Part shown: in pieces, positions 7,218-64,000 of the stretch
Position numbering within the stretch: position 1 is the first letter of the stretch
Layout of the letters: each line of letters starts with the position of its first letter
NCBI GenBank assembly: GCA_964429275.1
Contig: CAYSBJ010000002.1
Location: 282,459-346,458, forward strand
Length of the DNA: 64,000 nucleotides
Direction of reading: 5' to 3'
Source of the DNA: an uncultured Pseudomonadota bacterium
Lineage (GTDB): Bacteria > Babelota > Babeliae > Babelales > JAUPTZ01
Notes under the pieces: model-generated
The model's database searches: none
Told to the model about the DNA's origin: nothing
The model's input: only the letters and a program-made list of their open reading frames with translations
Position numbers and translations under genes: made by a program

Positions 7218-8267
7218 CTAAGACACAACCCGTACGCGTCCACGTACCGCTTCCAACGCTGGGTCAGCATTAATCTTTGCATTAATTTCATCAAAATTTA
7301 CCGACAGCCCGAGCTCCACCGCACGTTTTTTATTAATAACAAGCTCTCTCGTTGAGCCAAGAGAAATTACCGGCAGTGTTGCAGGATTTTTATGATGGAA
7401 AAGAATTTGGACAACCTGATCAAAACCAGCCTCTGCGATATAGCGAAGCTCACTGGCGTAAACAATCAATACATTTTCTTTTAAGGCTGACATAGCTCCA
7501 CTAAAGTACCCAGTATTATATCGCTCTGCCAACTTAGCAAGACCAGCAAATTGCATATCATTCAACGCATCTCCTTCAACGGTCATTACAATATCATGTC
7601 CCAACAACAGGCCTTCAACTAGCGCTAGAGATTCGAATAGAGATCCAACCGGTAAAAGCGTTACGCTTACACCTTTTGACTCTAAATAATCTTTAGTTTT
7701 TTCAGCCTTATTTACAATTTCTTTGGCAGCATCATACGGAAAATAAAAAGGTAATAAAACTGATTTGGTATGAGGAAATGTTGTATACAGCAATCGCGCA
7801 GGTACGGAATCTTCAAAGGATACGGTTATGACCCCCGTTACAGCGCCTCCCGGCTGCTCAAGTGATTCTATCAACTCAAGTTCCACTGGATTTTGTACAC
7901 CAACAAATACAATCGGCACAAGGCTCTTCCGTTTACGTGCAAGATTAATAAGAGTTTGAGAAAGCATTCGCCCAACAACAACAATACAATCAGCAGGGAG
8001 AGAAAGTACTTCATCACATGTTATAGTAACAGCTGATGTATCAGATAAATTGGGAATAGTCATCGCGTTAACTTCCACCTTTCCGCCTAACCACGATTTC
8101 GCCGTCTTTAAAAAGGCATCCTGCACTGCCTCATGAAAAGCAGTGTGGGACGCACTCACGAACAACACTTTCCGTGGCGACACATGCCCCGCATGCCAAT
8201 AATACGCAATAAGGGCTACAGCCCCCAGTACAATAATTGCGCTAAAAACATAGCCCTTCTTGCTCAT
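7218..8267 (-). CDS. membrane-anchored ABC-type substrate-binding-like protein (COG2984 / PF04392-like), copy A
   Basis: Motif IVFVGVQNPVELELIESLEQPGGAVTGV matches the V-x-DP-V...PGGN-V-TGV core of the family as I remember it. N-terminal anchor MSKKGYVFSAIIVLGAVALIAYYW. Start set at 8267 by analogy with the paralogue at 9292..10353. It shares one base with the upstream stop (TAATG). Confidence 0.75.
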   Translation of the reverse strand: MSKKGYVFSAIIVLGAVALIAYYWHAGHVSPRKVLFVSASHTAFHEAVQDAFLKTAKSWLGGKVEVNAMTIPNLSDTSAVTITCDEVLSLPADCIVVVGRMLSQTLINLARKRKSLVPIVFVGVQNPVELELIESLEQPGGAVTGVITVSFEDSVPARLLYTTFPHTKSVLLPFYFPYDAAKEIVNKAEKTKDYLESKGVSVTLLPVGSLFESLALVEGLLLGHDIVMTVEGDALNDMQFAGLAKLAERYNTGYFSGAMSALKENVLIVYASELRYIAEAGFDQVVQILFHHKNPATLPVISLGSTRELVINKKRAVELGLSVNFDEINAKINADPALEAVRGRVRVVS

Positions 8268-49972: not shown

Positions 49973-51013
49973 TTAAAAGAGTGTTTCCTGCTCTTGCGTA
50001 TCTTCTCCCAGAAGTATACGCCGAAGGGCAAGGCGTCGGTGCACTGGGATCTGTCGGCCACGCGGCGTTTTTTGCAATAATCCTTGCCGCATCAAATACG
50101 GTTCGCAAAAATCTTCCAGCGTTTCCTTGTCTTCTCCAGTCATAGCGGCAAGCGTCTCAAGCCCAACCGGACCGCCCGAAAAGTCCCTTAGTATATGCAA
50201 TAGTACCATTCGGTCAAGCTTATTCAGCCCATGAGCATCGATTCCCAAAAAGGTCAGCGCCTGCTCAACAACAACATCATCAATCACTTTTTGCTGCTTA
50301 ACTTGGGCGAAATCGCGCACGCGACGGAGGAGGCGCTTCACAATCCGGGGTGTACCGCGAGCCCGAGCGCCAATAAGTTTTGCCGCTGACGGAGTAAGTG
50401 AAACATCAAGAAAGTCTGCATTCTGAAGAACGATTTGCGCAAGTTCATCAGGCTCATAGAAATCAAGACGCTCCACGATGCCAAATCGTGTCTGCAGCGG
50501 CGCAGAGACCATCCCTGTCTTCGTGGTAGCACCAATGAGGGTAAATGGATTAAGCGGCAATCGAATCGACTTGGCACCAGCTCCTTGCCCCACGATCATA
50601 TCAACGCAGAAGTTTTCCATAGCGCTATAAAGAATTTCTTCTACTGCTTTAGATAAGCGATGGATTTCATCAATAAAAAAAACATCATGCGGCTGAAGGC
50701 CAGTCAACAACGCAACCAAATCGCCGGGACGCTCCAGCACCGGCGCACTCGTAACTTTGATAGTTACCCCCAGTTCTTTGGCAATAATGGTTGCGAGCGT
50801 CGTCTTTCCCAGCCCCGGTGGCCCGAAGAGCAGCACATGATCGAGCGCCTCCCCCCGCTGCGATGCGGCAGCGGTATACACCTGTAATTTCTCTTTAATT
50901 GCCGACTGCCCAAGGTACTGGGCAAATGACTGCGGCGCAAACCCAAGCTGCCGATCTTCGACAACAGGGGTTGGGGCAACAAGTTCTAATTCTGGTAATG
51001 CCGTATTGTGCAT
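49973..51013 (-). CDS. ruvB: Holliday junction branch migration helicase RuvB
   Basis: Motifs LLFGPPGLGKTTLA, VFFIDEIHRL, TLIGATT, FGIVERLDFY and RGTPRI. No ruvA is adjacent. Confidence 0.95.
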   Translation of the reverse strand: MHNTALPELELVAPTPVVEDRQLGFAPQSFAQYLGQSAIKEKLQVYTAAASQRGEALDHVLLFGPPGLGKTTLATIIAKELGVTIKVTSAPVLERPGDLVALLTGLQPHDVFFIDEIHRLSKAVEEILYSAMENFCVDMIVGQGAGAKSIRLPLNPFTLIGATTKTGMVSAPLQTRFGIVERLDFYEPDELAQIVLQNADFLDVSLTPSAAKLIGARARGTPRIVKRLLRRVRDFAQVKQQKVIDDVVVEQALTFLGIDAHGLNKLDRMVLLHILRDFSGGPVGLETLAAMTGEDKETLEDFCEPYLMRQGLLQKTPRGRQIPVHRRLALRRILLGEDTQEQETLF

Positions 51014-51348
51014 CGGTCCTCATCTCATTTCCAGGCCTTTCATAGGCACTGACTCGCCGCGAACTCTAGCATGGAGTTACGGACAGGCTCAAGAGAAATG
51101 CGGCTAACCATCAAAATAAAATAGATCAATCACTGTGGTTTTTCTAAAAAATGTGATAGTTTTCTTTGGAAAACTGAGCATCAGAAGTGGCCGTTATGAC
51201 AAGAAAAATGCACCAGCCAGGATAGAAGAGGCTTTAAAGCTCCAAGAGAAACTTTTTTCTCTTTCGCCTAGCGGACGAATTAGATAAAGAAAACGCAAAA
51301 AACTTACTCCCACACGACCTCGCGGGAATAAAATACATAAGGAAAACC

Positions 51349-51876
51349 ATGTTTACTAAAAAAATTCTTTTATTAGCCATCGGACTCACGACCGCAGGGA
51401 GCCATCTCATCGCATCAGATGCGGAACCCGCAGCTGCCGCAAAACACGAATCAACTCCCTACCAAGCCCTTGCAAATCACTGCGAGAAAGTTCAACAGGA
51501 AATAACTTTCCTGAAGGAAAATTGGTTCACTGAAGATCTCGATAGGCATATTAACCAAATTCAAAAGGAGCTCGCAAAACTAGAAACCATGCCCATCCCT
51601 GCAGAGTTGCCAGCTGATGTAAAAAAAGCCATAACAGAGATCCATTCCTATGGCAAAAGTCTCACTTATTTCAAGAGTTTCCCCAGAATAATAGTAAATG
51701 CTCTTGAATGCATAGAAACGACCATCACGCAGATAGCATCTACGCTTAGAACCCACCAAAGAAAGGCTCTACTAGAAGCCATAATACTGAATGGATCACT
51801 ACCAGACTGCGATAAAACAAAACTATCCGAGAGTATCATTTCGGGATGGGACAGGCAAACGCCCAAGATAGATTAA
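51349..51876 (+). CDS. hypothetical secreted protein (175 aa)
   Basis: ORF track. Signal-peptide-like MFTKKILLLAIGLTTAGSHLIAS. AAGGAAAACC precedes the ATG. Confidence 0.55.
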   Translation: MFTKKILLLAIGLTTAGSHLIASDAEPAAAAKHESTPYQALANHCEKVQQEITFLKENWFTEDLDRHINQIQKELAKLETMPIPAELPADVKKAITEIHSYGKSLTYFKSFPRIIVNALECIETTITQIASTLRTHQRKALLEAIILNGSLPDCDKTKLSESIISGWDRQTPKID

Positions 51877-52088
51877 AGTCAAGCAAAGCTGCCGCATCTT
51901 CTGGGCTCGAAGCAGCTTCATCAAATGCCATCATAGCACCTCACATCGTTACAAAAAAAATCCGCCCTCGGCACGTCGGCACAATTATACATGCCATTCT
52001 AGCCGTCAAGCGGTAATTAATAGTAACAAAGAAGGGGGAGAAGTCCGTCGACGCTTTCGCAATCCATCAGTCAGGCCTTTAATAAGGC

Positions 52089-52175
52089 TGGTGCAAGGAG
52101 GGGGACTTGAACCCCCAAGGTGTTGCCACCGCTGGCTCCTAAGGCCAGTGCGTCTACCAATTTCGCCATCCTTGC
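52089..52175 (-). tRNA. tRNA-Leu (anticodon TAG), type II with long variable arm, CCA encoded
   Basis: Minus strand folds by hand: GCAAGGA-TG-GCG-AAATTGGTAGA-CGC-A-CTGGC-CTTAGGA-GCCAG-CGGTGGCAACACCTT-GGGGG-TTCAAGT-CCCCC-TCCTTGC-A-CCA. All four stems and the variable arm pair. Confidence 0.9.
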
Positions 52176-52282
52176 GTAGATTTATTTTTCTACGTCTAAC
52201 TCCATTAGTCAGGCCTTTAAAAAGGATGGCCTGCCAGCTGGAGCTTCTTTGCAACATACTTTGTAGTTACAAAGGCGTAGTT

Positions 52283-52357
52283 TGGTGGGTCGCCACGGAC
52301 TCGAACCGTGAACCTGCAGATTAAGAGTCTGTTGCTCTACCATTGAGCTAGCAACCC
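52283..52357 (-). tRNA. tRNA-Lys (anticodon CTT), CCA encoded
   Basis: Minus strand folds by hand: GGGTTGC-TA-GCTC-AATGGTA-GAGC-A-ACAGA-CTCTTAA-TCTGC-AGGTT-CACGG-TTCGAGT-CCGTG-GCGACCC-A-CCA. Confidence 0.85.
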
Positions 52358-52497
52358 CTACCAAGGTCGGCAAGGATAGCAGAGCAGAAAATAATGTAAA
52401 TACACGACTGACACTCAACCTGCTTGACAAATGAAAAACAGCTTCGTATATCTGGCCCTCGTCAGTTTATGGTCCCCCAACATACTAGGAGGTTAGC

Positions 52498-53814
52498 TTG
52501 AGCAAAAAAACCTTTGTTCCCGCGTTTACCCCACGCTCCCTTAAATACAGCATCGACAAAAAATCGTCGCACTTGTGGTATCTTACTGTGGAAATCCCTG
52601 GTGCCATGACGGCCCACATTAAAGATCACATAACGCGACTCTATCGCCAGTACACACTTATGCCGGGCATTTCCTGCAACAGCCTTCCAATAACCTATAC
52701 GCAACACTATTTTGCCCAAGAAATTGAAAAAGAATCACGACAATTCCTGTACGAACACTTTATCGAAGGCAGCATTCAAAGTTTTTTGCAAGACAATAAA
52801 ATAACGACCGTAAACTGGCCACGCATCAAAGATGTTGGCGGTAGCGCACAAAATGGTTATACCATAACCATCGCCCTCTCACTGGCCCCGCAGCTTCAAC
52901 TTCACAATTGGCAGACACAAACTTTTGTTGCGCCTAAACGAAAAAACTACACCGACCTCGACATCCAGGTTGAATCCTTTATTGCCACCCTAGAGGCAGA
53001 ATCATCCTCGACGCGCACCGCGACTGTTGAACTTGGCGACTGGGTTCGCTTTTCAGCGCAATTTCGCTCACCTCTAGTGCAAACACCCGTCCACAGTCAC
53101 ACACAATATTGGCTCCGTATCACCAATCCGATACTTACTTCGCCGGCAATGCAGCAATTTTTAACTGCGAAAGTAGGAAGTTCATTTACCATACCAGCAA
53201 GCGCACTCTCTATACACCAAGAAAATCCTTTTTCTACCGACTATTATTTCGATGTTACCGTTGAACATATTGTCAAAACACAAAAACTTTCGGTACAGCA
53301 GGTACAAGACTGCCTACACGTAAGCGACCATCAAATGCTGCACAACAAGTTAATAGAGATTTTTTCCTATCGCAACGATGTTTCATTACGTAAGGCGATC
53401 ATTGAAGAATTGTTCTATGCACTCTTCAATGCCTTCCGCTTTGAGATTGCGCCACACGCGATCACACGACGAAAAGAACTACTGCTTTTTTTGATGCATC
53501 AAACACCTGACAACTCCGTCTATACAAAACAAAAGCACTTTGCAACGCACATAACACTGCTCGCAGAAACAAAATTAAAAGAAGAAGCGCTCATAGACGC
53601 GATTGCACAGCTCGAAAACATTACGGTCACGCCAGAAGACATCACTCACTATCTCTCTCTGGCGTCAAACGAACGGCTAAAAGAATTCTTATACTTCTCT
53701 CCGTTGACCGAAGACGCTATCTCTTCTGACCAACCCTGTGGTGAATATATTCTAAACCAGACAGTTCGTCGGGAGAAAACACTGAATGCGATTATCCAGC
53801 AAATTGCCATCTAA
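52498..53814 (+). CDS. trigger-factor-like protein, divergent paralogue 1 (438 aa)
   Basis: TTG start with AGGAGG 5 nt upstream. Collinear with the trigger-factor architecture: N-domain with the signature position reading MPGISCNSLP instead of GFRKGKVP; APQLQL / PKRKNYTDLDIQVESFI linker; a PPIase-sized middle region; helical C-domain. Confidence 0.6.
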   Translation: MSKKTFVPAFTPRSLKYSIDKKSSHLWYLTVEIPGAMTAHIKDHITRLYRQYTLMPGISCNSLPITYTQHYFAQEIEKESRQFLYEHFIEGSIQSFLQDNKITTVNWPRIKDVGGSAQNGYTITIALSLAPQLQLHNWQTQTFVAPKRKNYTDLDIQVESFIATLEAESSSTRTATVELGDWVRFSAQFRSPLVQTPVHSHTQYWLRITNPILTSPAMQQFLTAKVGSSFTIPASALSIHQENPFSTDYYFDVTVEHIVKTQKLSVQQVQDCLHVSDHQMLHNKLIEIFSYRNDVSLRKAIIEELFYALFNAFRFEIAPHAITRRKELLLFLMHQTPDNSVYTKQKHFATHITLLAETKLKEEALIDAIAQLENITVTPEDITHYLSLASNERLKEFLYFSPLTEDAISSDQPCGEYILNQTVRREKTLNAIIQQIAI

Positions 53815-53853
53815 AATTCAATGAGGGTCCAGAGACAAGGATAGAATAAACCC

Positions 53854-55248
53854 TTGACTTTTTTTCCATACAACTCCATATACTTTTCAACACGTAATAA
53901 ACCGGCAATGACGACGCGCATTGTCTTTAAACACCCTGGTACTAGGACGGATGAAAATAATATGGTGACTCCTCATATGCGTTTCTCGTGGGAACATTCG
54001 TCAAGCTGCTTCATTTATGGCGATGTCACCGTTGATCGAGCAATTGTACAACCAATGACCACCCAAATGGCACAGCTTTACCAACACTACGCTGCATTGC
54101 CAGGTTATGAAAAAAAACATCTCCCCATCGAATATGCAAAAGCGTATTTTGCTGCGGAGATCAAGCAAGACACACAAGAATTTTTATACAAACATTTTGT
54201 ACTCCAATTTTTGCTCGACGAAATTACACGAAATCATCTAGTGACTGCTAATTGGCCACGCCTCTCAGAAGTAAAATCTATTGATGAGGGCCTTACGTAT
54301 CGCTTTATTCTTACTATTGCACCAAACCTAGCGCTCAAAGAATGGAAACATTTTGTCTTTAAACAACCTGAACGTAAAAACTATAAAGATTTGGATAACC
54401 AGGTTATTAATTTCATCAAACAAGCTACCGACACCGCTCGATCGCACGATAAACACACTACGGCAGCGGGGGACTGGGTTTCTTTTTCAGCACAGCTCCT
54501 CAATCCAAATACCGAAGAAGCGCTTTTTGAACAACAGCATCGCTACTGGATTCGCATCTCAGGCGACATCATCATAAGCAAATTACAGCAAAGTTTTGTA
54601 GAGAAAAAAGTAGGCGATGCCTTTATCGTTAACGCACTTCCATTTATTGATGCACCACAAAGCAGCATCGAAGAACCATGCCATTACAAAATAACCATTG
54701 AATCAATTACCAAAGGCGGGCACATGTCGCTTGAATTTTTCAAACAAACGTTCAAGCTAAAAACCCGCGCAGACGTCCACAAGAAGTTAATAGAGGTATT
54801 CTCATATCGTAATGATATCTCGCAGCGCCGCTCAACAATAGAAGAATTATTTCACCTGCTCTTCACGAAACATCGTTTTGAAATGCCAAAGCATATCATC
54901 ACACGAAAAAAGGAAAATCTCCTCAATATTATCAAGCGACAAAGTGACTATAACATTTATAAGAACAACAAGAACTTTGACACCCACCTCACTCTCCTTG
55001 CTGAAAAGATGCTCAAAGAAGAACTCATCATAGACCACATCGCCTACGCTGAAGAAATTAAAGTAAGCTGCGCCGATATCGCGCACTACCTCCATCTTTT
55101 TAATAACGAGCGGCTCAAAGAATTCATCTACTTTAAGCCATTAATCGATAGCGTTGAAGATTCAAATACACCAATTCACGAAGCAATTCTGGCACAAGCC
55201 GTTGCTCGTGAGAAAACACTCAATTACATACTATATACTCTCTCGTAA
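53854..55248 (+). CDS. trigger-factor-like protein, divergent paralogue 2 (464 aa or shorter)
   Basis: Clear paralogue of 52498..53814. Compare EVFSYRNDISQRRSTIEELFHLLF with EIFSYRNDVSLRKAIIEELFYALF, and LTLLAEKMLKEE with ITLLAETKLKEE. Signature position reads LPGYEKKHLP. Start uncertain: TTG 53854, ATG 53905 or ATG 53959. Confidence 0.6.
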   Translation: MTFFPYNSIYFSTRNKPAMTTRIVFKHPGTRTDENNMVTPHMRFSWEHSSSCFIYGDVTVDRAIVQPMTTQMAQLYQHYAALPGYEKKHLPIEYAKAYFAAEIKQDTQEFLYKHFVLQFLLDEITRNHLVTANWPRLSEVKSIDEGLTYRFILTIAPNLALKEWKHFVFKQPERKNYKDLDNQVINFIKQATDTARSHDKHTTAAGDWVSFSAQLLNPNTEEALFEQQHRYWIRISGDIIISKLQQSFVEKKVGDAFIVNALPFIDAPQSSIEEPCHYKITIESITKGGHMSLEFFKQTFKLKTRADVHKKLIEVFSYRNDISQRRSTIEELFHLLFTKHRFEMPKHIITRKKENLLNIIKRQSDYNIYKNNKNFDTHLTLLAEKMLKEELIIDHIAYAEEIKVSCADIAHYLHLFNNERLKEFIYFKPLIDSVEDSNTPIHEAILAQAVAREKTLNYILYTLS

Positions 55249-55256
55249 GGTTACTT

Positions 55257-55274
55257 TGCGCAATGTATTGCGCA
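55257..55274. promoter_or_regulatory. perfect 8-2-8 inverted repeat TGCGCAAT-GT-ATTGCGCA upstream of the giant-protein genes
   Basis: Read directly from the sequence. It lies 9 nt after the stop of the second TF-like gene and 64 nt before the ATG at 55338. No T-run follows, so it looks more like an operator than a terminator. Confidence 0.3.
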
Positions 55275-55337
55275 TGAAGCAATACTCCTGCCACACTGCG
55301 GCCGATTGAAAGCAATTTTTAACCATGTCGCAGTGAG

Positions 55338-58300
55338 ATGATGTACATAGTAGTAGTATTACTTGGATTACTTGCCTGGAACGCGCCGCTCATCGCCAAA
55401 CAACGCGATCCTGTCGTATTAGCAGCACAGGAAAACTCGCTCCCCGCTAACTCTGTCAAAGCGGATCATCAGCCGGAACATCAAAATTCCGTTCCGGCTA
55501 CCGCTGCGCCAAAGCCATCTCAAACAGAAAATGACGATACTGACATCACCACACTTCTGGATGATAATGACTCTACAGCATCAAATGATGATGATAACAA
55601 TGATGAACTAAAAAGTTTACTTGGCGATACTTCTGCCACCGGTGAAGATTTTGATGACTTGAAAAATCTTCTCGACGACACTCCATCAGATGCTAACAAT
55701 GGTAGCGAGAAAGAGGATGTAAGCGCTGACGATACTGATTATAGTGACAGTAGCGAGGAAGAGGATGAAGATGATAATCCTGGCCCGGGTACTTTCAGTG
55801 CTATTGATGGTGCCGATGTTAATCTTCCCATAATTGGCGGCTTTTCCTTCAATCCCTCACCAGAAGCTATTGCTGACAAGACTGTTTCCCCTGCTGGACA
55901 GACACGCAAAGATGCAATTGATAAGGCAGACAAAAAAAGCTTCAACGTTGGGCTCATTTCCTTCACTAAAGTAACTGGGCACGTAGATAAAAACGGCCGC
56001 CTTGCAATGGAAGGTACTTGTACTCTCAATAACCAAGAAGGCAGTATCTCCGTCATCAAATTTGATGAGAAAACAACGGAACTCCACCTCAAGCTAAGCT
56101 ATTCAAAACCATTTACTTTCGACATTTTGCCGAACACTTCAGTTTCTATTTCGGAGTTTAAACTTGAGCTCACTAACAACGGGCCAACACTCACCGCGAA
56201 TTCTTCTGTCTTTACTCCAAACAATAAAAAAGGGACTCTTCTTACCTTTGGTACAGAAGTCACCGGCAATAGCGGTGCTACAGGCACTATCAAGAATGAA
56301 GTTCCACTTACCACTCTTGTCCCTCAAGCAAAAGGGAACAAAGATGCAGAAACAATCACACTCTCCAACGTCACTATTTCCTTCCTTAACCCACTGGCGC
56401 TTCAACAACAGCTCATGGAATCTGGCGGCATGCCATCCACCACTATTACAGCCAGTGCGGTGCTCTCTCGCATAAAACTTTTTGGTAAAGCACATCTAAG
56501 TGATTCCGATGTTACCATAACAATCAGCGGCCCAAGCATCAGTCTTGACAGCCAAGGAACATCACCTATTCAATTAGACACCAACGTTGCACTAAATAAC
56601 CCAAACATACAGATGAACCTTTCGCAAGGAATGCCGCCTGAAGTCGGTATCGGCGGCACGCTGGCCTGCGATCTTCCGGTAGTCGGAACTATTAATACCC
56701 CGGTGCATGGAAGAAAAGGCATGGGTGAATTCGAATTAACCGGCGCTCTTAATAACAGCTTTGGATGGGGGCCAGTAAAATTTGAAAACCCAAACATAAA
56801 TCTTTCTTCTGCCCCAATGATGGGGATGGGACAGCTGGACCAGGACACAACAGACCACAATTTACTTAACATTTGGCTGAGTTGTCACTTTAAAATGTTT
56901 GGCCTCGATATTATGCCGATTTTACGCTTCTTAAAACCAAGCGGCGGCAATCCAATGGGAGGAGCAATTCCAACTAAATCCGGCAGGATAGTTAGTTTTT
57001 CCGGACAGATCAACGGTGGAAAACCAATTAAACCCCTCTCATACATTCCCGGCCTTAACGAAATCCCTGGGATAAAAGACTTCTTGCTAGAGCAAGCAGA
57101 ACTGGGCGGCGACTCAGCAGCAAAAATGTTCATCGGCGGCACAACAACGCTCTTCGGAATTGCCACAAAAGCGAAAATTTTAATGGGGAGTGCCAAAAGC
57201 ATTCTCGCATCAAGCACAAAAGCGTGGAAAATATCGCACTCAATCCCATCGCTAAAAGGGAGTGTTTTAGACTCTCTCGAATTTGAAACCATTACTTTTG
57301 GCTACACTAAAGCACAGTATTTAGATGCAGAATCTGGCATGATTATGCAGCCAGGTCTAAATATTTTTGGATCAGTAGATACATCTCAAGGGATATTTAA
57401 AGATTTACGGAAGTTCCTTAAAATAATCCCAAAGAAACTCATTGGCGGGGTAACGCTGCACCCAAATCCTCAGCACTGCAAAATACAAGTCGCCATACCA
57501 CTCGACGTAAAAATTTCGAGCCGTGTAAGCCTACACAACATCATGTTCGAAATAAATGGCTCACCAGGCATTGCGCTCATGCTCTCACTAGCCTTCATAA
57601 CAAATAAGAACGAACCACCACTTATTTTTACTGCGCGGGTTGAGTTTAACCCTGGTTTCTTTATAGTCTCAGGCAGTCTCCAGGGAGTATGGAAAAAACC
57701 TTTCGGCATTCCAGGACTTATCCTCAGCGACATGGCCGTAGAACTCTCACTTCCCTATAACTTAATCCCACCGGTAGGTTTTGGCGTGACAGGAGCTATC
57801 CAGATTGGAAGCTTCATAGCACGAGCAGCCGTCAAAATCGGTCCAAAAGATATGTTACTTCTCGCCGAAATAAGCAAGTGGCCGCTCTTCTGCTTGCCTG
57901 ACCTAATGAACATGGTCGGCCTTAAAATTCCAGGCCTAGAATTCATCAATGCAATCGACATCTGCTTACGCGATGTCAAATTTAAATTTGCGCCGAATGG
58001 TGGTCAAATTGGTATGATTTATTTCGACCCTGGCATCAGCGCCTCCGCAAAACTTATTTTAAACATTCCATACATCATAAAAACAAAACTTGAAGCTGCC
58101 TTCAATTTGGACTGGATCGGTGGCTTCAAGATGTACGCAAAAATGTCCGGATTCAACCTCGGCCCCTTAAAAATTACGGGAAAAGGCGAGGATAAAAAAT
58201 TCAATACCAGCGATGACGGAGCTATATTTTGGGCCGAGCTCTCTCTCTCTCACCAAAAAATATACATCTCCGCACTTGTGGAACTTTTTGGTTCATCAGC

Positions 58301-58622
58301 AGAACTTGAAATTGATGTTGGCCTCTTGCATATACGCTTTAAAATGATGATGAAACTTCTTGGATTTCTTAATACACACATTGTCGGAGAAACGTATCAT
58401 AAAGGCTGGCGAGTAGGCTTTCGCGTCATGGGTACCGCAAAAATTGGAAATAAGGCAGAGGCAACTATTTTTGGCGACATCAATACACTAGGATGCTCTT
58501 TTGCAGGAAAATATGATGCGCTAACCCTCCATGATATCGCCGATCTTTGCCATATACCAAGCGATATCATTCCTCAATTCGGAATGACCGACATAGAATT
58601 TTACGTTCGAGCACAAGGATAG
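55338..58622 (+). CDS. giant secreted protein 1 (1094 aa): signal peptide, acidic disordered region, beta-rich body
   Basis: Signal-peptide-like MMYIVVVLLGLLAWNAPLIA. Acidic tract at about 55521-55790. The C-terminal module (about 58098-58400) is homologous to a module in the next gene. Confidence 0.8.
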   Translation: MMYIVVVLLGLLAWNAPLIAKQRDPVVLAAQENSLPANSVKADHQPEHQNSVPATAAPKPSQTENDDTDITTLLDDNDSTASNDDDNNDELKSLLGDTSATGEDFDDLKNLLDDTPSDANNGSEKEDVSADDTDYSDSSEEEDEDDNPGPGTFSAIDGADVNLPIIGGFSFNPSPEAIADKTVSPAGQTRKDAIDKADKKSFNVGLISFTKVTGHVDKNGRLAMEGTCTLNNQEGSISVIKFDEKTTELHLKLSYSKPFTFDILPNTSVSISEFKLELTNNGPTLTANSSVFTPNNKKGTLLTFGTEVTGNSGATGTIKNEVPLTTLVPQAKGNKDAETITLSNVTISFLNPLALQQQLMESGGMPSTTITASAVLSRIKLFGKAHLSDSDVTITISGPSISLDSQGTSPIQLDTNVALNNPNIQMNLSQGMPPEVGIGGTLACDLPVVGTINTPVHGRKGMGEFELTGALNNSFGWGPVKFENPNINLSSAPMMGMGQLDQDTTDHNLLNIWLSCHFKMFGLDIMPILRFLKPSGGNPMGGAIPTKSGRIVSFSGQINGGKPIKPLSYIPGLNEIPGIKDFLLEQAELGGDSAAKMFIGGTTTLFGIATKAKILMGSAKSILASSTKAWKISHSIPSLKGSVLDSLEFETITFGYTKAQYLDAESGMIMQPGLNIFGSVDTSQGIFKDLRKFLKIIPKKLIGGVTLHPNPQHCKIQVAIPLDVKISSRVSLHNIMFEINGSPGIALMLSLAFITNKNEPPLIFTARVEFNPGFFIVSGSLQGVWKKPFGIPGLILSDMAVELSLPYNLIPPVGFGVTGAIQIGSFIARAAVKIGPKDMLLLAEISKWPLFCLPDLMNMVGLKIPGLEFINAIDICLRDVKFKFAPNGGQIGMIYFDPGISASAKLILNIPYIIKTKLEAAFNLDWIGGFKMYAKMSGFNLGPLKITGKGEDKKFNTSDDGAIFWAELSLSHQKIYISALVELFGSSAELEIDVGLLHIRFKMMMKLLGFLNTHIVGETYHKGWRVGFRVMGTAKIGNKAEATIFGDINTLGCSFAGKYDALTLHDIADLCHIPSDIIPQFGMTDIEFYVRAQG

Positions 58623-58626
58623 CCAC

Positions 58627-61600
58627 ATGTACATAATAACTGGGTACTTTGCATGCCTTCTGGCCTCACTCATTATCAACCCCCTCGTCGCGGCCACAAA
58701 CATATCATCAATAACAAGTACTGTGCGCCCAGAAGGATCTGTTCCAAAGGCTGCGCCCCTTCCACCCACAGACCCAACTCCAATTACTATAATTACCGCA
58801 AATGCCCCAACTGATACGACACCACCGCCACAAAAAGCTCCGATTCCAGCAACGGACGTAGATGCTATCGACCCAGATCAGGATGACAGCACGCCACCAG
58901 CTGGAGAAACAGCAGACATGGTAGTTGCTGACGATACAAAGTCTGAGGAAAAATCGGTCTCACTTCTCGCAACTGCAAGCGCCGATAACGCCGCCGGCCT
59001 GGACGTTGTTGATCCTAATGATGCCATTGTTGCTGCTACGCCATTAGCAATTCCCGCACCAGACACAAGCACAGCTTTTATAACACCTGAAGCAAGCGCC
59101 GCTGCTATTGCTGCTGGAAAAAAAAATAAAGCCGCCATTATTGCCGCAGAAGAAAAAAAAGAAGCAGATAAAACAACCAGCGTAAGCAAGGCAAATGACC
59201 TTTTTGCCTACAACTTAACAGGAATGAAAGAAGCTGGTGTTGATATTTCAAAAAATGGCTTTGGCATGACTGCACGCTTCGACCTTGGATGGGGAGCGTA
59301 CATGCGTGCAACCTTCGCAGTAAATACCGACGGACTTCTCCTGCAGGCGTACATAAAGGAAATCAATCTTGCAAACATATTAAAAGTGACCGGCACTGGC
59401 CCTGACGGTAAATATGGCACTCCGGACGACGGAGTGTTAGTAGAAATACGCCTGGACAAAAAAATACAACGCGTTGCCCTCAGCGGATTAATTGATCTTT
59501 TTGGCGCAATGAGTGAAACCGAAATTATTATTGCTTCTGACAAAATAAAATTCATGGCGTACACCAATCTCTTTGGTATGTTTTCTACTACCCTCCTCGC
59601 TCAATTCACTTTTTCAGATTTTGAATTTTTTATAGAAGGGGCTGTAGAAACAAGACTTATTGCAGAAATAGAAAAAAGAGCAAAAGAAGCTATTACCAAA
59701 GTAGGCGACGCAGTCGTAGCAGTATCAAAAAAAGCTGCACAATCAGTGCAAAAAGCACGAAAAAACCTTGAATATCTCAAAAAAGTCGTAAGGGCTGCCA
59801 ATGCCAAGCTACGTAAAGCACAAGCAACCTATTTCTCAAAATTAAACGCCCCACAAAAAGATATAAATGACGCCGTAAAAGCAGTTGAGGCTGCAGATAG
59901 AGAGGTTGGCAGCCAAGTAGGAAAAATACTAGAAGCACGTAGAAAAATGCTCGCCGGAAGAAAAGCAATTGCTGGGGCTATAACCAAAGTTAACTCGTTA
60001 AATGGGCAAGTAAGCCGCGCCATCAAAAAATTAAAGAGTATCGCTCGTGGTATGAAATGGTATGAATTCTGGAAAGTCGCCGAGCTGGCTTATTGGAGTG
60101 CCGCAGTAGCAGCGCTTGAAACAGCACGGGGTATCGCTATTGGCGCCCTGGAAATCGCAAAGGCCTCTATCACCCCGCTGGCTGGACTCCTTACCGCAAC
60201 ATATGCAGTATCATATGCTGCAAGCAAAGCTGCACTTGAAATAGCCTACCTTAACTTAGAGGCAGCACTCATCGCCGCAAACCCATTAACCATGAAAGAA
60301 TTAGGCGAAGTATTAGCCGCCAGCCTAGAAATTAGCGGCGCCTCCATGGCATACTACGCTGCCCAAGGGGTATTGATTACAACCTGGGCAGCCTTTAAAG
60401 GAATAGAAGAAGTTACCAAAGGAATAACAATTGCCATGAGAGAGGTCGTTTCCGCGGCTTTTGAAATATTTAGAATTGATGGCGCAGCATTTAAAGCCTC
60501 CGTTAAAAACGTAGTGCAAGGATCACTTGATCTCTATCTCCTCGTCTACATTTTCACGGTAAAGAAAAACCTCAAGCTTACCCTTGATATGAGCAAGCCA
60601 GATAAAACATTTGCAAGTATTGGCAACATGATCGCTGATATTTTTAACCCATTATCACATGGCTCAAGTGATGACATTTTTGCTAAAGTCCAACAAGACC
60701 GTAAAAACTTCATGGCTGGCATCACCGCAGCAGGGCCTAGTCTACAAGACCGAATCCAGCAAAATCGCGCAAGTTTCGCTGGTGACCTCACAAGCTTGGA
60801 TGAAAAAAGCAAAGCTGCAGCAATCGAACAAGAAAAAGTCAAAAAACAACAAGAAGCCCGCGAAGCCGCCTTAAAAAAGATACAAGATGATAACGCACAA
60901 CGTCTTGCTACTATGCGCCAAAAATACCCATTTACTGAATCTGACATCAAAAATATGGGCTCACTTGATTTCCTTTCCTCTACAGAATCTGCAACCATCG
61001 TTGACGAAAAAAATCCAGTTTCCTGCTCCACAGCACGCATGCAAGGGCTATTCCGATGGTTTGAAGCATGGAAGCTCCCAACACCTAATAGCGGTTGCGT
61101 ATTATTCGACGTAAGCGGCGATCGTGATATTTACATTGGCTTCCATCATGAAATAGATGAAAAAAAGCAAAAACGAAACAAAGACTTCGATATTGTACTC
61201 GGCGCAAAAGAAAATACCGTAAATATTATCCGCGACGCAGAAAGCAGTGTCATTTTTTCTTGTGGTGACCCTGACTCATTAATTATTACCACAAAAGAAG
61301 GAGGATTTCAGCGCTACTGGATCAGCTTTGATAACGGGTATCTTGCAATTGGGCGCGGCGGAAATCCTGGCAAAGAAATGCTTTTTGATTGGCAATTCTC
61401 TGATCTGTCAGACCCTATTAAGTATTTCTCGCTCTCTTCAGGAAGTAACGAGCTTTCATTTGTAAACATCCACACTGCACCTGCATTTAAAGGCACCTTT
61501 GGCTCCCAATACTCTACGTTTGGCGCCTATAATCAATTTAACTGGCCGCTTAAGCTTAGCGCCGAAAACAACAGCACAATAACATTCAAAGCAAAAGCTG

Positions 61601-64000
61601 CTCAAAACATTGCCCTTGGCTTATGTGATAATCCCAGCGTAAAATTTTCCCGCTACCTTGCCGTATTTGGGGCAGAAGGAAATACAACCACAACTATGGC
61701 AACCGGCGCTGCTGATGGAAAAACATATAATTACCTTGCAATAACGGAAGACGCCTCCGCCTTACTCCCAACAGATAACCAAACAACCTACTATCCCTAT
61801 TGGGCAACATTCAACAATGGCCACTTCGTCATCGGTTCTGGATCAATCCCATCACAAAACATTATTAGCGAAATAAATATCAATCCAGCAACATTATCAG
61901 CATCAGCCATCGTACCATTAACGGCACCACCAGCAGATGTAGCAACCGCGGCTCCGGTGACCACGCCGGCAACACCTACTTCTCCCGCCACCTCGCCAAC
62001 ACCGGCTGTATCCGCAATTACACCACCAGAACCAACCACTTCTCCATCAAGCAGCACAACAAGTAGTCAAGCCTCAGCCCCTGCAGCCGCAACAAGCGGT
62101 GGCGGATCTGGCATGAAGTATTTTTCCTTCAGTAGCTGGGACGATTCAGTAGAAATCAGAGATATTGTCGTACAACCAGCAGTGCCGTGCCCAATAGGAA
62201 CCCTTTATAGCGCAGTAAATCGAAAATTTTCCTGCACTTGGAATGATGCATGGAAATTCAAAACACCGGGCAAAGGAATTATCACATGGGAAGGAAAAGG
62301 CTCCTGCGACATGGGCTTAGCACTGCACACAAATGGAACTTCAACCGACAATTCTTATACCTACCTTTGCACCATCGGCGCACAAAAAAACACTCATACC
62401 ACCCTTTCTGACAGTACAAAAAAAGCACTTGCAGATAACACCGACATAGATTCCACCATAGCCGCTAAAGATAGCTATACTCCATACTGGTTTTCTTACG
62501 ATGACGATGGCTACTGCATGCTCGGTACGGGAAAAGTTCCTGGACAAAACGTGATTCTTGAAACAGCCACACCAAAGCAACCAATCACCCATTTCTGCTT
62601 TACCAATGGCACCGATCACGTCGAATTCAACAAAATTGCAACGCAAGATATCACGACACCACTACGACGTGGAACCCAATACACCGCCGCACCACAAACA
62701 CCCCTCAACTGGAATGAGGCGTGGAAGATAGCAAATGCAAACACATCTCTCATTCTTCTAGCAGCAAAAGCACAAAGCGGCCTAAGTATCGGGCTCAAAG
62801 ATGATAAGGGCACCGTTTATACCGTCACCATCGATGGCGCAACCAGCAGCATTACAGACGCAAAAAACACCCCGCTCTCTACTACTACAGCAGAAAAAAG
62901 TTATATAAATGATCCTTATAATTTCTACGCATACTGGGTACTGTATTCTCGTGCAACCGGCACGCTTTCGTATGGCTGTGGCGAGGTAACGCCCAAGAAC
63001 AGTATTGCGAAAGTCATATTATCTGAAAAACCGACATTTACTTCCTTTGGTATTGGAAACCCAACCAAAGATCCTGTATATTGCAAAAAAATAGCCTCAC
63101 TTGAGCAAGAAGATCCGAGTGTGAAATCAAACTATGGATCAATACTGCTCAATGAGTCATACGCAGCCACAAACACGCAAAAAACACCGGCCTACCTCTG
63201 GCAAGACGCATGGAAATTAGTAACTACAGAGGCCGGCGCCATCACCTACCGAGCACGAACCACAGGATCCATTGCATTCGGCCTAGGCAACTCAAAAGAT
63301 GGTGCGCTCTATGACATCTACATCAATGGCAAAGAAGTCAGCATTCGCAAAGGAAAAACGATTGTTGCGCGAAGCATTGATAAAAAAATAGTTCTTCCAG
63401 ATGCACATAACTTCTATGGCTATTGGATAAGCTACTACAAGGGCCACATTCGGATCGGCAGCGGCACTGATCCGCGAGAAAATACAATGGTCGAATGGGT
63501 TGATAGTAGTCCAGCAGCTAACATTACGCACTTCTCTCCTTCAAGCATTGACGGCTTTGTTAGTTACAAAGCCATAACTTCCCTTCCCGCCGCCGCAACA
63601 CCGATGTATCAAGTGTACAGCGCCTGCCAAGAAAAAACCGCTTTTAATTGGTACGCACCATGGGAGCTCACTAAACCAGAACAAGGACTCATAACCTTTG
63701 AACTAAAGACCGACAGTGAAGCAGTAATTGGTCTCACCGGGACAAAATCGGACCCTACGTATACTATACGCCTTGGTAAAAACTGCGTAGTCACTAAAGG
63801 CGGCGCAACGCTCGCTACCAGCGCACAAAAAACACCAGTCGTAACCGGCAATACATTTCAACCATTCTGGATTCTTTTTGATAAAAGTTACCTTGCCATC
63901 GGTACAGGTCTAACGCAAAACAACGAATCCCTAATTATTGATTACCAAGACGTGCCAACAGTCGACATCATACAACGATTCTCATTAAGCAGCAGCAGCG
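58627..64000 (+). CDS. giant secreted repeat protein 2, runs off the right window edge (at least 1791 codons)
   Basis: Absent from the ORF track because there is no stop in the window. I checked all in-frame triplets from 58627 to 64000 and found no stop. ATG at 58627 is the first start after in-frame stops at 58585 and 58594, and lies 4 nt after the upstream stop. Signal-peptide-like MYIITGYFACLLASLIINPLVAA. Confidence 0.85.
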   Translation, partial: MYIITGYFACLLASLIINPLVAATNISSITSTVRPEGSVPKAAPLPPTDPTPITIITANAPTDTTPPPQKAPIPATDVDAIDPDQDDSTPPAGETADMVVADDTKSEEKSVSLLATASADNAAGLDVVDPNDAIVAATPLAIPAPDTSTAFITPEASAAAIAAGKKNKAAIIAAEEKKEADKTTSVSKANDLFAYNLTGMKEAGVDISKNGFGMTARFDLGWGAYMRATFAVNTDGLLLQAYIKEINLANILKVTGTGPDGKYGTPDDGVLVEIRLDKKIQRVALSGLIDLFGAMSETEIIIASDKIKFMAYTNLFGMFSTTLLAQFTFSDFEFFIEGAVETRLIAEIEKRAKEAITKVGDAVVAVSKKAAQSVQKARKNLEYLKKVVRAANAKLRKAQATYFSKLNAPQKDINDAVKAVEAADREVGSQVGKILEARRKMLAGRKAIAGAITKVNSLNGQVSRAIKKLKSIARGMKWYEFWKVAELAYWSAAVAALETARGIAIGALEIAKASITPLAGLLTATYAVSYAASKAALEIAYLNLEAALIAANPLTMKELGEVLAASLEISGASMAYYAAQGVLITTWAAFKGIEEVTKGITIAMREVVSAAFEIFRIDGAAFKASVKNVVQGSLDLYLLVYIFTVKKNLKLTLDMSKPDKTFASIGNMIADIFNPLSHGSSDDIFAKVQQDRKNFMAGITAAGPSLQDRIQQNRASFAGDLTSLDEKSKAAAIEQEKVKKQQEAREAALKKIQDDNAQRLATMRQKYPFTESDIKNMGSLDFLSSTESATIVDEKNPVSCSTARMQGLFRWFEAWKLPTPNSGCVLFDVSGDRDIYIGFHHEIDEKKQKRNKDFDIVLGAKENTVNIIRDAESSVIFSCGDPDSLIITTKEGGFQRYWISFDNGYLAIGRGGNPGKEMLFDWQFSDLSDPIKYFSLSSGSNELSFVNIHTAPAFKGTFGSQYSTFGAYNQFNWPLKLSAENNSTITFKAKAAQNIALGLCDNPSVKFSRYLAVFGAEGNTTTTMATGAADGKTYNYLAITEDASALLPTDNQTTYYPYWATFNNGHFVIGSGSIPSQNIISEININPATLSASAIVPLTAPPADVATAAPVTTPATPTSPATSPTPAVSAITPPEPTTSPSSSTTSSQASAPAAATSGGGSGMKYFSFSSWDDSVEIRDIVVQPAVPCPIGTLYSAVNRKFSCTWNDAWKFKTPGKGIITWEGKGSCDMGLALHTNGTSTDNSYTYLCTIGAQKNTHTTLSDSTKKALADNTDIDSTIAAKDSYTPYWFSYDDDGYCMLGTGKVPGQNVILETATPKQPITHFCFTNGTDHVEFNKIATQDITTPLRRGTQYTAAPQTPLNWNEAWKIANANTSLILLAAKAQSGLSIGLKDDKGTVYTVTIDGATSSITDAKNTPLSTTTAEKSYINDPYNFYAYWVLYSRATGTLSYGCGEVTPKNSIAKVILSEKPTFTSFGIGNPTKDPVYCKKIASLEQEDPSVKSNYGSILLNESYAATNTQKTPAYLWQDAWKLVTTEAGAITYRARTTGSIAFGLGNSKDGALYDIYINGKEVSIRKGKTIVARSIDKKIVLPDAHNFYGYWISYYKGHIRIGSGTDPRENTMVEWVDSSPAANITHFSPSSIDGFVSYKAITSLPAAATPMYQVYSACQEKTAFNWYAPWELTKPEQGLITFELKTDSEAVIGLTGTKSDPTYTIRLGKNCVVTKGGATLATSAQKTPVVTGNTFQPFWILFDKSYLAIGTGLTQNNESLIIDYQDVPTVDIIQRFSLSSSS
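61015..64000 (+). repeat. at least 6 tandem ~150-165-aa protein repeats (FAMeT / Methyltransf_FA-like) within the giant ORF
   Basis: Recurrent landmarks: F/L-x-W-x-x-x-W-(K/E) at 61057, 61543, 62239, 62710, 63199 and 63649. (Y/F)W-x-x-(F/Y)-x-x-G-x-(L/I/F)-x-(I/L)G-x-G at 61315, 61798, 62485, 62932, 63421 and 63865. (F)S-(L/F/P)-SS near each unit end. Confidence 0.8.

Follow-up and report, generated by a model that had tools for sequence, protein, structure and literature searches.

Trigger factor is encoded by a single copy of its gene, tig, in 97.4% of the bacteria that carry it, and an excess of ribosome-binding trigger factor is harmful (Wan et al. 2024, mBio, PMC11559001). In the same survey, 367 of 390 multi-copy genomes held one copy only with the ribosome-binding motif, and the extra copies were usually truncated at the N-terminus. 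A related protein, PceT, acts as a dedicated trigger-factor-like chaperone; it is encoded in the pceABCT operon and binds PceA's signal for twin-arginine translocation (Tat) (PMC8905343). Here, we describe two adjacent trigger-factor genes, TF1 and TF2, in a 64,000-nt window (positions 282459-346458 of contig C2) from genome G000, which belongs to the order Babeliales of Candidatus Dependentiae (TM6) and measures 1.21 Mb at 98% completeness. The organism is a protist-dependent bacterium with a reduced genome of about 1.2 Mb. We consider it reasonably probable that TF2 serves as the general chaperone of the cell and that TF1 is a retooled duplicate whose altered docking has released it from the dosage constraint.

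The two proteins are 40% identical over 420 aa (E 2e-104) with only 2 gaps, in keeping with an earlier note on this DNA that had described the plus-strand neighbours as paralogues. Both fall under the 180.2-bit cut-off of TIGR00115, the NCBIfam tig equivalog: TF1 scored 54.1 bits over profile positions 44-369 and TF2 78.2 bits over positions 7-375. When the domain profiles proposed in the earlier note were run on both proteins, the Pfam Trigger_N and Trigger_C scores of TF2 (28.1 and 24.2) lay above the gathering scores and those of TF1 (20.6 and 18.8) just under them, and FKBP_C matched neither protein. Single-sequence searches with TF1 and TF2 returned no match among PDB sequences; a profile built from 37 family sequences reached the trigger factors of Vibrio cholerae (1T11, 2.3e-11) and Escherichia coli (1W26, 3e-10), covering the N-domain and the prolyl-isomerase domain. 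The AlphaFold2 prediction for TF1 had a predicted local distance difference test (pLDDT) score of 85.5 and a predicted template modelling (pTM) score of 0.86. Searched with Foldseek, this model retrieved full-length trigger factors at the top (3GTY, 3GU0, 2VRH, 1W26 and 1T11, E 1e-13 to 1e-9), along with chloroplast TIG1 and partial SlyD/FKBP matches for the head domain. The N-domain, with strands and helices over model residues 2-115, was modelled confidently and superimposed on E. coli 1OMS with a target template modelling score (TM-score) of 0.71. TF1 is thus predicted to have the full three-domain trigger-factor fold, comprising an N-domain, an FKBP-like head and a helical C-domain. From its 40% identity to TF1 and the 2 gaps over 420 aligned residues, TF2 would share this fold. 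Both proteins are trigger factors by fold and homology, far from the canonical profile.

Low profile scores are common to the lineage. TIGR00115 was matched in 150 of 151 Dependentiae genomes and exceeded its cut-off in none (0/151), the best score being 129 bits; strong divergence is a trait of the whole phylum and not a sign of specialisation. With the family profile, the gene turned up in 226 of 230 Dependentiae genomes. Only one family, f1, and G219 have two full-length copies: in f1 they are in tandem (G000, G001, G002, G003 and G005), and in G219 they are unlinked (C4:10123-11394 and C2:801673-802944) and score nearly equally. The second copy in G219, a genome that is 82% complete with 6% contamination, possibly reflects a strain mixture. 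The remaining genomes with two matches have far weaker best E-values and resemble cases of genes split at contig ends, as was seen directly in G013. An assembly artefact was considered for the tandem pair itself and rejected, since the identical pair is present on independent contigs from several sources.

Across Babeliales, the gene lies in a conserved backbone, with yicC-yebC-(symporter)-ruvB on the minus strand followed by tRNAs and then tig-rpmH-rnpA-yidD on the plus strand, and tig behaves as the single-copy gene of the lineage in this ruvB / rpmH context. The absence of a tig-clpP-clpX neighbourhood, to which the earlier note had drawn attention, was borne out, because G000 has no detectable clpX or clpP. 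Neither was secB detected in this 98% complete genome; dnaK is present (C2:269049-270839). TF1 and TF2 are the only tig homologues in G000, the search for a canonical tig elsewhere in the genome having yielded no further homologue. The same note had stated that its proposal of dedicated chaperones would fail if these were the only tig homologues and were conserved in relatives as single-copy housekeeping genes unlinked to giant genes, and with 226 of 230 genomes carrying the gene and a conserved backbone around it, this is largely the situation that we found.

A maximum-likelihood tree of the TF1 and TF2 sequences against 28 single-copy orthologues united TF1 and TF2 in one group (support 100/100). 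The TF1 clade, itself supported at 100/100, sits on a stem branch of 1.08 substitutions per site; inner branches of TF2 measure 0.11-0.25 substitutions per site. TF2 is paraphyletic in the unconstrained tree, and its monophyly was not rejected by the approximately unbiased (AU) test (p 0.36). Since both genera of family f1 carry both copies, the single duplication predates the genus split, and one tandem duplication took place at the base of the family. An origin of TF1 by horizontal transfer or from an ancient paralogue was rejected, since within Dependentiae TF1 groups with its own family's TF2 (100/100).

The two copies diverged asymmetrically. Of the 94 alignment columns whose conservation among single-copy genes reaches 85% or more, 21 have changed in the TF1 clade and 3 in TF2. 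Among the sites altered in TF1 are the signature Phe (now I, M or L), several conserved Lys and 13 C-domain positions. Lys and Arg residues number 36-39 in TF1, about 15 fewer than in full-length TF2 (52-54), and 51-72 in the single-copy genes. Since this burst, TF1 has been under purifying selection and is as constrained as TF2. Between G000 and G003, amino-acid identity is 85% for TF1 and 83% for TF2, and the proportion of nonsynonymous differences (pN) is 0.10-0.11 against a saturated synonymous proportion (pS) of 0.76-0.79. We report pN against saturated pS in place of dN/dS, which was uncomputable for most pairs owing to saturated synonymous sites; the pairs that allowed calculation gave an omega of about 0.08-0.12. 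In a large protein database, TF1-type sequences make up 24 distinct clusters at 45-100% identity, the next matches lying at 40% or less. Branches inside the TF1 clade are no longer than TF2 branches.

A further change concerns the ribosome-docking loop. In the 37-sequence profile, the family consensus 'leGfekkklP' aligns to E. coli 'dGFRKGKVP', which places PGISCNSLP of TF1 and PGYEKKHLP of TF2 at the docking-signature position, as the earlier note had read them. The canonical signature GFRxGxxP is kept in neither protein. The TF2 loop (G-Y-E-K-K-H-L-P) retains the Gly, the aromatic residue and the Pro, with the Arg and the second Gly gone, and so TF2 also fails the GxRxG test of PMC11559001. 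In the TF1 loop (G-I-S-C-N-S-L-P) the aromatic is gone too, leaving neither GxRxG nor an aromatic at the position of E. coli Phe44. Many single-copy Dependentiae trigger factors read GFxxGxxP or GFxxxxxP. Among the 37 aligned sequences, 93% of the single-copy genes have F as the signature aromatic, every TF2 has Y or F, and loss of the aromatic is nearly restricted to the TF1 clade. The 24 TF1-type clusters share the loop motif PG[IMLV]SCxxLP, with one F and one L-H-G as exceptions and Ser/Thr-Cys in nearly all of them; TF2-type loops read PGYExKxLP or PGFADxxP. Nearly all TF1-type proteins share a Cys two residues past the former Phe; neither TF2 nor the single-copy trigger factors have it. 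Literature searches on trigger factor in Dependentiae and on an F44L mutant found nothing.

We read the course of events as follows, with ribosome binding and client range as its inferred parts. The one, phylum-divergent trigger factor of Dependentiae underwent a family-specific tandem duplication. TF2 held the ancestral character, including the aromatic at the Phe44 position, and most likely remains the general ribosome-associated chaperone, judging from its sequence. TF1 passed through its substitution burst right after the duplication, when the loop was respecified from G-F/Y to PG[IMLV]SCxxLP, some 15 Lys/Arg were lost, and phylum-conserved sites were altered, mostly in the client-binding C-domain. 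By altering the loop with the N-domain retained, TF1 may have evaded the dosage constraint on a second ribosome-binding copy. Its present role would be that of a chaperone or holdase whose docking to the ribosome is weakened or changed and whose clients are narrower or different, and it would be classed as a neofunctionalised or subfunctionalised duplicate.

Several points weigh against this account. TF1 retains its full N-domain, unlike most retained duplicates in PMC11559001, and the GFRxGxxP signature has already degenerated in TF2 and many of the phylum's single-copy trigger factors. An aliphatic residue replacing Phe might still dock, and because the TF1 loop shows conservation and no decay, it may support a modified form of ribosome binding. 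Finally, there was a single duplication event, and the co-occurrence of the pair with the two giant genes downstream, G1 and G2, is statistically uninformative in either direction.

The features of the locus are collected in the table, together with the cargo found in the corresponding position of related genomes.

Table. Features at the TF1-TF2 locus (window coordinates) and cargo of the tig-rpmH slot in other Babeliales.
Feature	Position or source	Strand	Description
TF1	52498..53814	+	fast-diverged trigger-factor paralogue, 438 aa, loop MPGISCNSLP
TF2	53962..55248	+	conservative copy, orthologue of the phylum's single-copy tig, 428 aa, loop LPGYEKKHLP
G1	55338..58622	+	1094 aa; N-terminal hydrophobic signal-like segment, acidic disordered region 1-148, all-beta body
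G2	58627..64000	+	continues 2039 nt beyond the window end; 2470 aa in total
ruvB	49973..51013	-	divergent upstream neighbour of tig, conserved across Babeliales
tRNA-Leu(TAG) + tRNA-Lys(CTT)	52089..52357	-	between ruvB and TF1
Promoter-like element upstream of TF1	52424..52452	+	TTGACA-17 nt-TATATC, read from sequence
TF1-TF2 intergenic block	53845..53900	+	AAACCxTTGAC...(19 nt)...TATACTTTTCAxCACGTAATAA
TF2-G1 intergenic block	55257..55299	+	8-2-8 palindrome 55257-55274 plus CTCCTGCCACACTGC 55285-55299
Slot cargo	L020, L025, G008		G1-like genes
Slot cargo	f4 genomes		thioredoxin-reductase-like gene
Slot cargo	L022		tectonin-like protein
Slot cargo	L023, L028, L030		unknown open reading frames

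TF1 starts at a TTG codon 5 nt 3' of the Shine-Dalgarno sequence AGGAGG (52487-52492). The longest open reading frame (ORF) of TF2 runs from TTG 53854 to 55248 and encodes 464 aa. Its true start is most likely ATG 53962 (MVTPHM..., 428 aa), because gene calls on related contigs use that start, because TTG 53854 falls within the conserved promoter-like hexamer TTGACT, and because a sister species has a stop among the upstream codons. Over about 55 nt, the TF1-TF2 intergenic block does not vary among six genomes, representing two genera, whose synonymous sites are saturated. It is promoter-like, with TTGACT (53854-53859), a 19-nt spacer, TATACT (53879-53884) and a conserved leader, and is probably TF2's own promoter and leader. 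A sigma-70 scan skipped this block on account of its 19-nt spacer and skipped the element upstream of TF1 on account of the C that ends its second hexamer. Combined with a terminator scan, it picked up no terminator among the four genes and missed every promoter-like site that had been identified by eye; the support for these sites is their conservation, not a consensus scan.

In the spacer between TF2 and G1, the 18-bp palindrome is only partly retained in relatives, and CTCCTGCCACACTGC is the conserved part. The conserved block (AATATATTGCAC ... CCTGxCACACTGC) is present in 5 of 6 family members, and G005 has a long perfect hairpin right after the TF2 stop (L049, about 7490-7610). This block is probably regulatory for G1-G2, the second of which starts 4 nt past the G1 stop. 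Taken together, the spacers suggest that TF1, TF2 and G1-G2 form separate transcription units. A Rfam search of positions 51000-56000 found nothing besides the two tRNAs. The relatives G003, L043 and L045 carry a minus-strand ADP-ribosylglycohydrolase gene between ruvB and TF1, of which there is no trace anywhere in G000. About 1.07 kb lies there instead (51014-52088), with a 175-aa ORF (51349-51876) for which no homologues were found in the compared loci or elsewhere in the genome.

The two giant genes, whose products look like exported proteins, occupy the interval between tig and rpmH. In many single-copy genomes, rpmH starts about 100-200 bp after tig (L011, L012/L024, L026, L027 and L029), with a distance of about 400 bp in L021; elsewhere the gap is a variable cargo slot across Babeliales. 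Two further loci, L047 and L048, were also counted among those displaying the variable slot. In family f1, the order TF1-TF2-G1-G2-rpmH does not vary (G003, G005, ELA303, L043 and L045), even where G1 identity is down to 34-49%, and TF1 accompanies TF2-G1-G2 on every contig seen. The earlier note had reported same-strand giant genes downstream and asked whether the arrangement recurs in relatives. The genes are as described, with G2 reaching past the window end, and the arrangement does recur within this family, where it goes back to one evolutionary event; outside it, G1-like genes lie in the slot beside a single tig (L020, L025 and G008) or are unlinked to tig (G019, G009 and G025). Of the 21 families sampled, 15 yielded no G1 homologue.

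G1 is single-copy in G000. The large database contains about ten close homologues, all unnamed and without Pfam domains, and outside Dependentiae the only match is P0014, a hypothetical protein of 1435 aa from Candidatus Electrothrix laxa (24% identity, E 9e-11). The G1 model is of moderate confidence (pLDDT 63.9, pTM 0.37) and predicts a disordered acidic N-terminal region followed by an all-beta body of about 950 aa. A Foldseek search of this model against the PDB gave nothing at E of 1e-3 or better, retrieving generic long beta-sheet proteins only (the ApoB100 belt, LptD and teneurin shells). G2 is built of repeated Methyltransf_FA (PF12248) modules and has a module of about 100 aa in common with G1; a distant paralogue of its repeat modules is encoded elsewhere in G000. 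No twin-arginine is visible in the N-terminal segments of G1 or G2. The fold and neighbour data for G1 do not bear on any chaperone need of G1 or G2. The two genes are lineage-specific cargo of the variable slot, probably with their own control region. Their linkage to tig is positional, adjacency being the one argument for a client role.

These observations bear on the earlier proposal that one or both copies are dedicated chaperones rather than the general trigger factor. It does not hold for TF2, which groups with the single-copy tig and lies in the conserved backbone, and it is possible for TF1. In such a case, TF1 would be a PceT-like or SecB-like chaperone keeping G1, G2 or both export-competent, with TF2 on the ribosome. 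The intact TF1-TF2-G1-G2 block in every family member seen, despite the low G1 identities, would agree with this, as would the undetected SecB, the altered docking loop and C-domain surface, and the precedent of PceT as a trigger-factor homologue encoded beside its client (PMC8905343). We nevertheless regard it as improbable. The G1-like genes that accompany a single tig or are unlinked to it imply that G1-type proteins need no second trigger factor, and the same slot also carries unrelated cargo, namely thioredoxin-reductase-like, tectonin-like and unknown ORFs. Of the two copies, TF1 lies at the greater distance from G1, separated from it by TF2 and a promoter-like block, and the conserved TF2-G1 block and the strong G005 hairpin suggest separate transcription. 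A second Methyltransf_FA-repeat protein is encoded elsewhere in the genome. Without a twin-arginine in the N-termini of G1 and G2, the Tat-signal mechanism of PceT is not transferable, and as the product of one evolutionary event the co-occurrence carries no statistical weight. A more specific form, in which TF1 is an off-ribosome SecB-like export holdase for both G1 and G2 acting through the PG[IMLV]SC loop in a phylum lacking SecB and ClpXP, appears slightly less probable still. If true, it would constitute a dedicated-chaperone route unlike both PceT, with its Tat signal, and the N-domain-deleted paralogues.

Plain subfunctionalisation, in which both proteins dock at uL23 and share the load, or form an off-ribosome heterodimer, with TF1's altered loop either neutral or compensated, is the strongest of the alternatives, and we still judge it unlikely. 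Both copies have complete N-domains, that of the TF1 model resembling 1OMS (TM-score 0.71), and the TF1 loop is strongly conserved in the 24 clusters, as would befit a working interface. Single-copy Dependentiae trigger factors already deviate from GFRxGxxP, and present rates are alike in the two copies (G000 and G003 share 85% and 83% identity). The published dosage constraint speaks against two docking copies, only 23 of 390 multi-copy genomes keeping two motif-bearing ones (PMC11559001); so does the near confinement of the aromatic loss to the TF1 clade in the 37 aligned sequences, and the burst of 21 of 94 conserved sites exceeds what a simple division of load requires. Decay of TF1 towards a pseudogene might be suspected from its trigger-factor profile scores, the lowest and under Pfam gathering, and from its long stem branch. 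The conservation data effectively refute this reading, to which we give almost no credence: at least 24 clusters and at least 2 genera preserve the open frame, pN is 0.10 against saturated pS, a strong Shine-Dalgarno precedes TF1, its fold is predicted confidently, and branches within its clade do not exceed TF2 branches in length.

Compared with canonical Tig (TIGR00115; 1W26, 2VRH, 3GTY and 1T11), TF1 and TF2 are alike in predicted domain order and fold, with an N-terminal domain of the ribosome-binding type, an FKBP-like head and a helical C-domain bearing arms; one orthologue per genome is also the rule across the phylum, from which the two copies in G000 depart. TF1 and TF2 differ in scoring 54 and 78 bits against 180.2, in lacking GFRxGxxP and in having no Pfam FKBP_C match. 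The gene context differs as well, being tig-clpP-clpX in the canonical case and ruvB / tig-rpmH-rnpA-yidD in Dependentiae, where G000 has no detected clpP or clpX. At the TIGR00115 cut-off, the tig orthologue goes unrecognised in every one of the 151 Dependentiae genomes searched, and pipelines or surveys relying on this threshold may score the phylum as without trigger factor. PceT/RdhT, the chaperone of the reductive dehalogenase PceA, offers a likeness in that a trigger-factor homologue is encoded beside a candidate exported client. PceT/RdhT, however, lies in a conserved client operon, whereas the adjacency of TF1/TF2 to the giants is in a variable slot. PceT/RdhT is documented to bind a Tat signal peptide on its client; the N-termini of G1 and G2 have no twin-arginine, and G1-like genes elsewhere accompany a single tig.

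The closest likeness is to the retained trigger-factor duplicates of PMC11559001, such as the Myxococcus xanthus homologues, in which a conservative and a diverged copy, an altered signature and asymmetric evolution are likewise combined, with subfunctionalisation or neofunctionalisation as the expected outcome. By sequence, the TF1/TF2 pair fits the published dosage-constraint model for such duplicates. Those duplicates are mostly shorter and without the N-domain, whereas TF1 is full length (438 aa) with an N-domain predicted intact; unlike them, it has a newly fixed loop, PG[IMLV]SC, and belongs to a tandem pair in a 1.2 Mb genome. The pair thus provides a natural test of the dosage model in a reduced, host-dependent genome, with the whole N-domain kept and the loop rewritten. 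If TF1 no longer binds ribosomes, escape from the dosage constraint would be achievable by loop change alone; if it still binds, the locus would be one of the rare cases of two ribosome-binding trigger factors in one genome.

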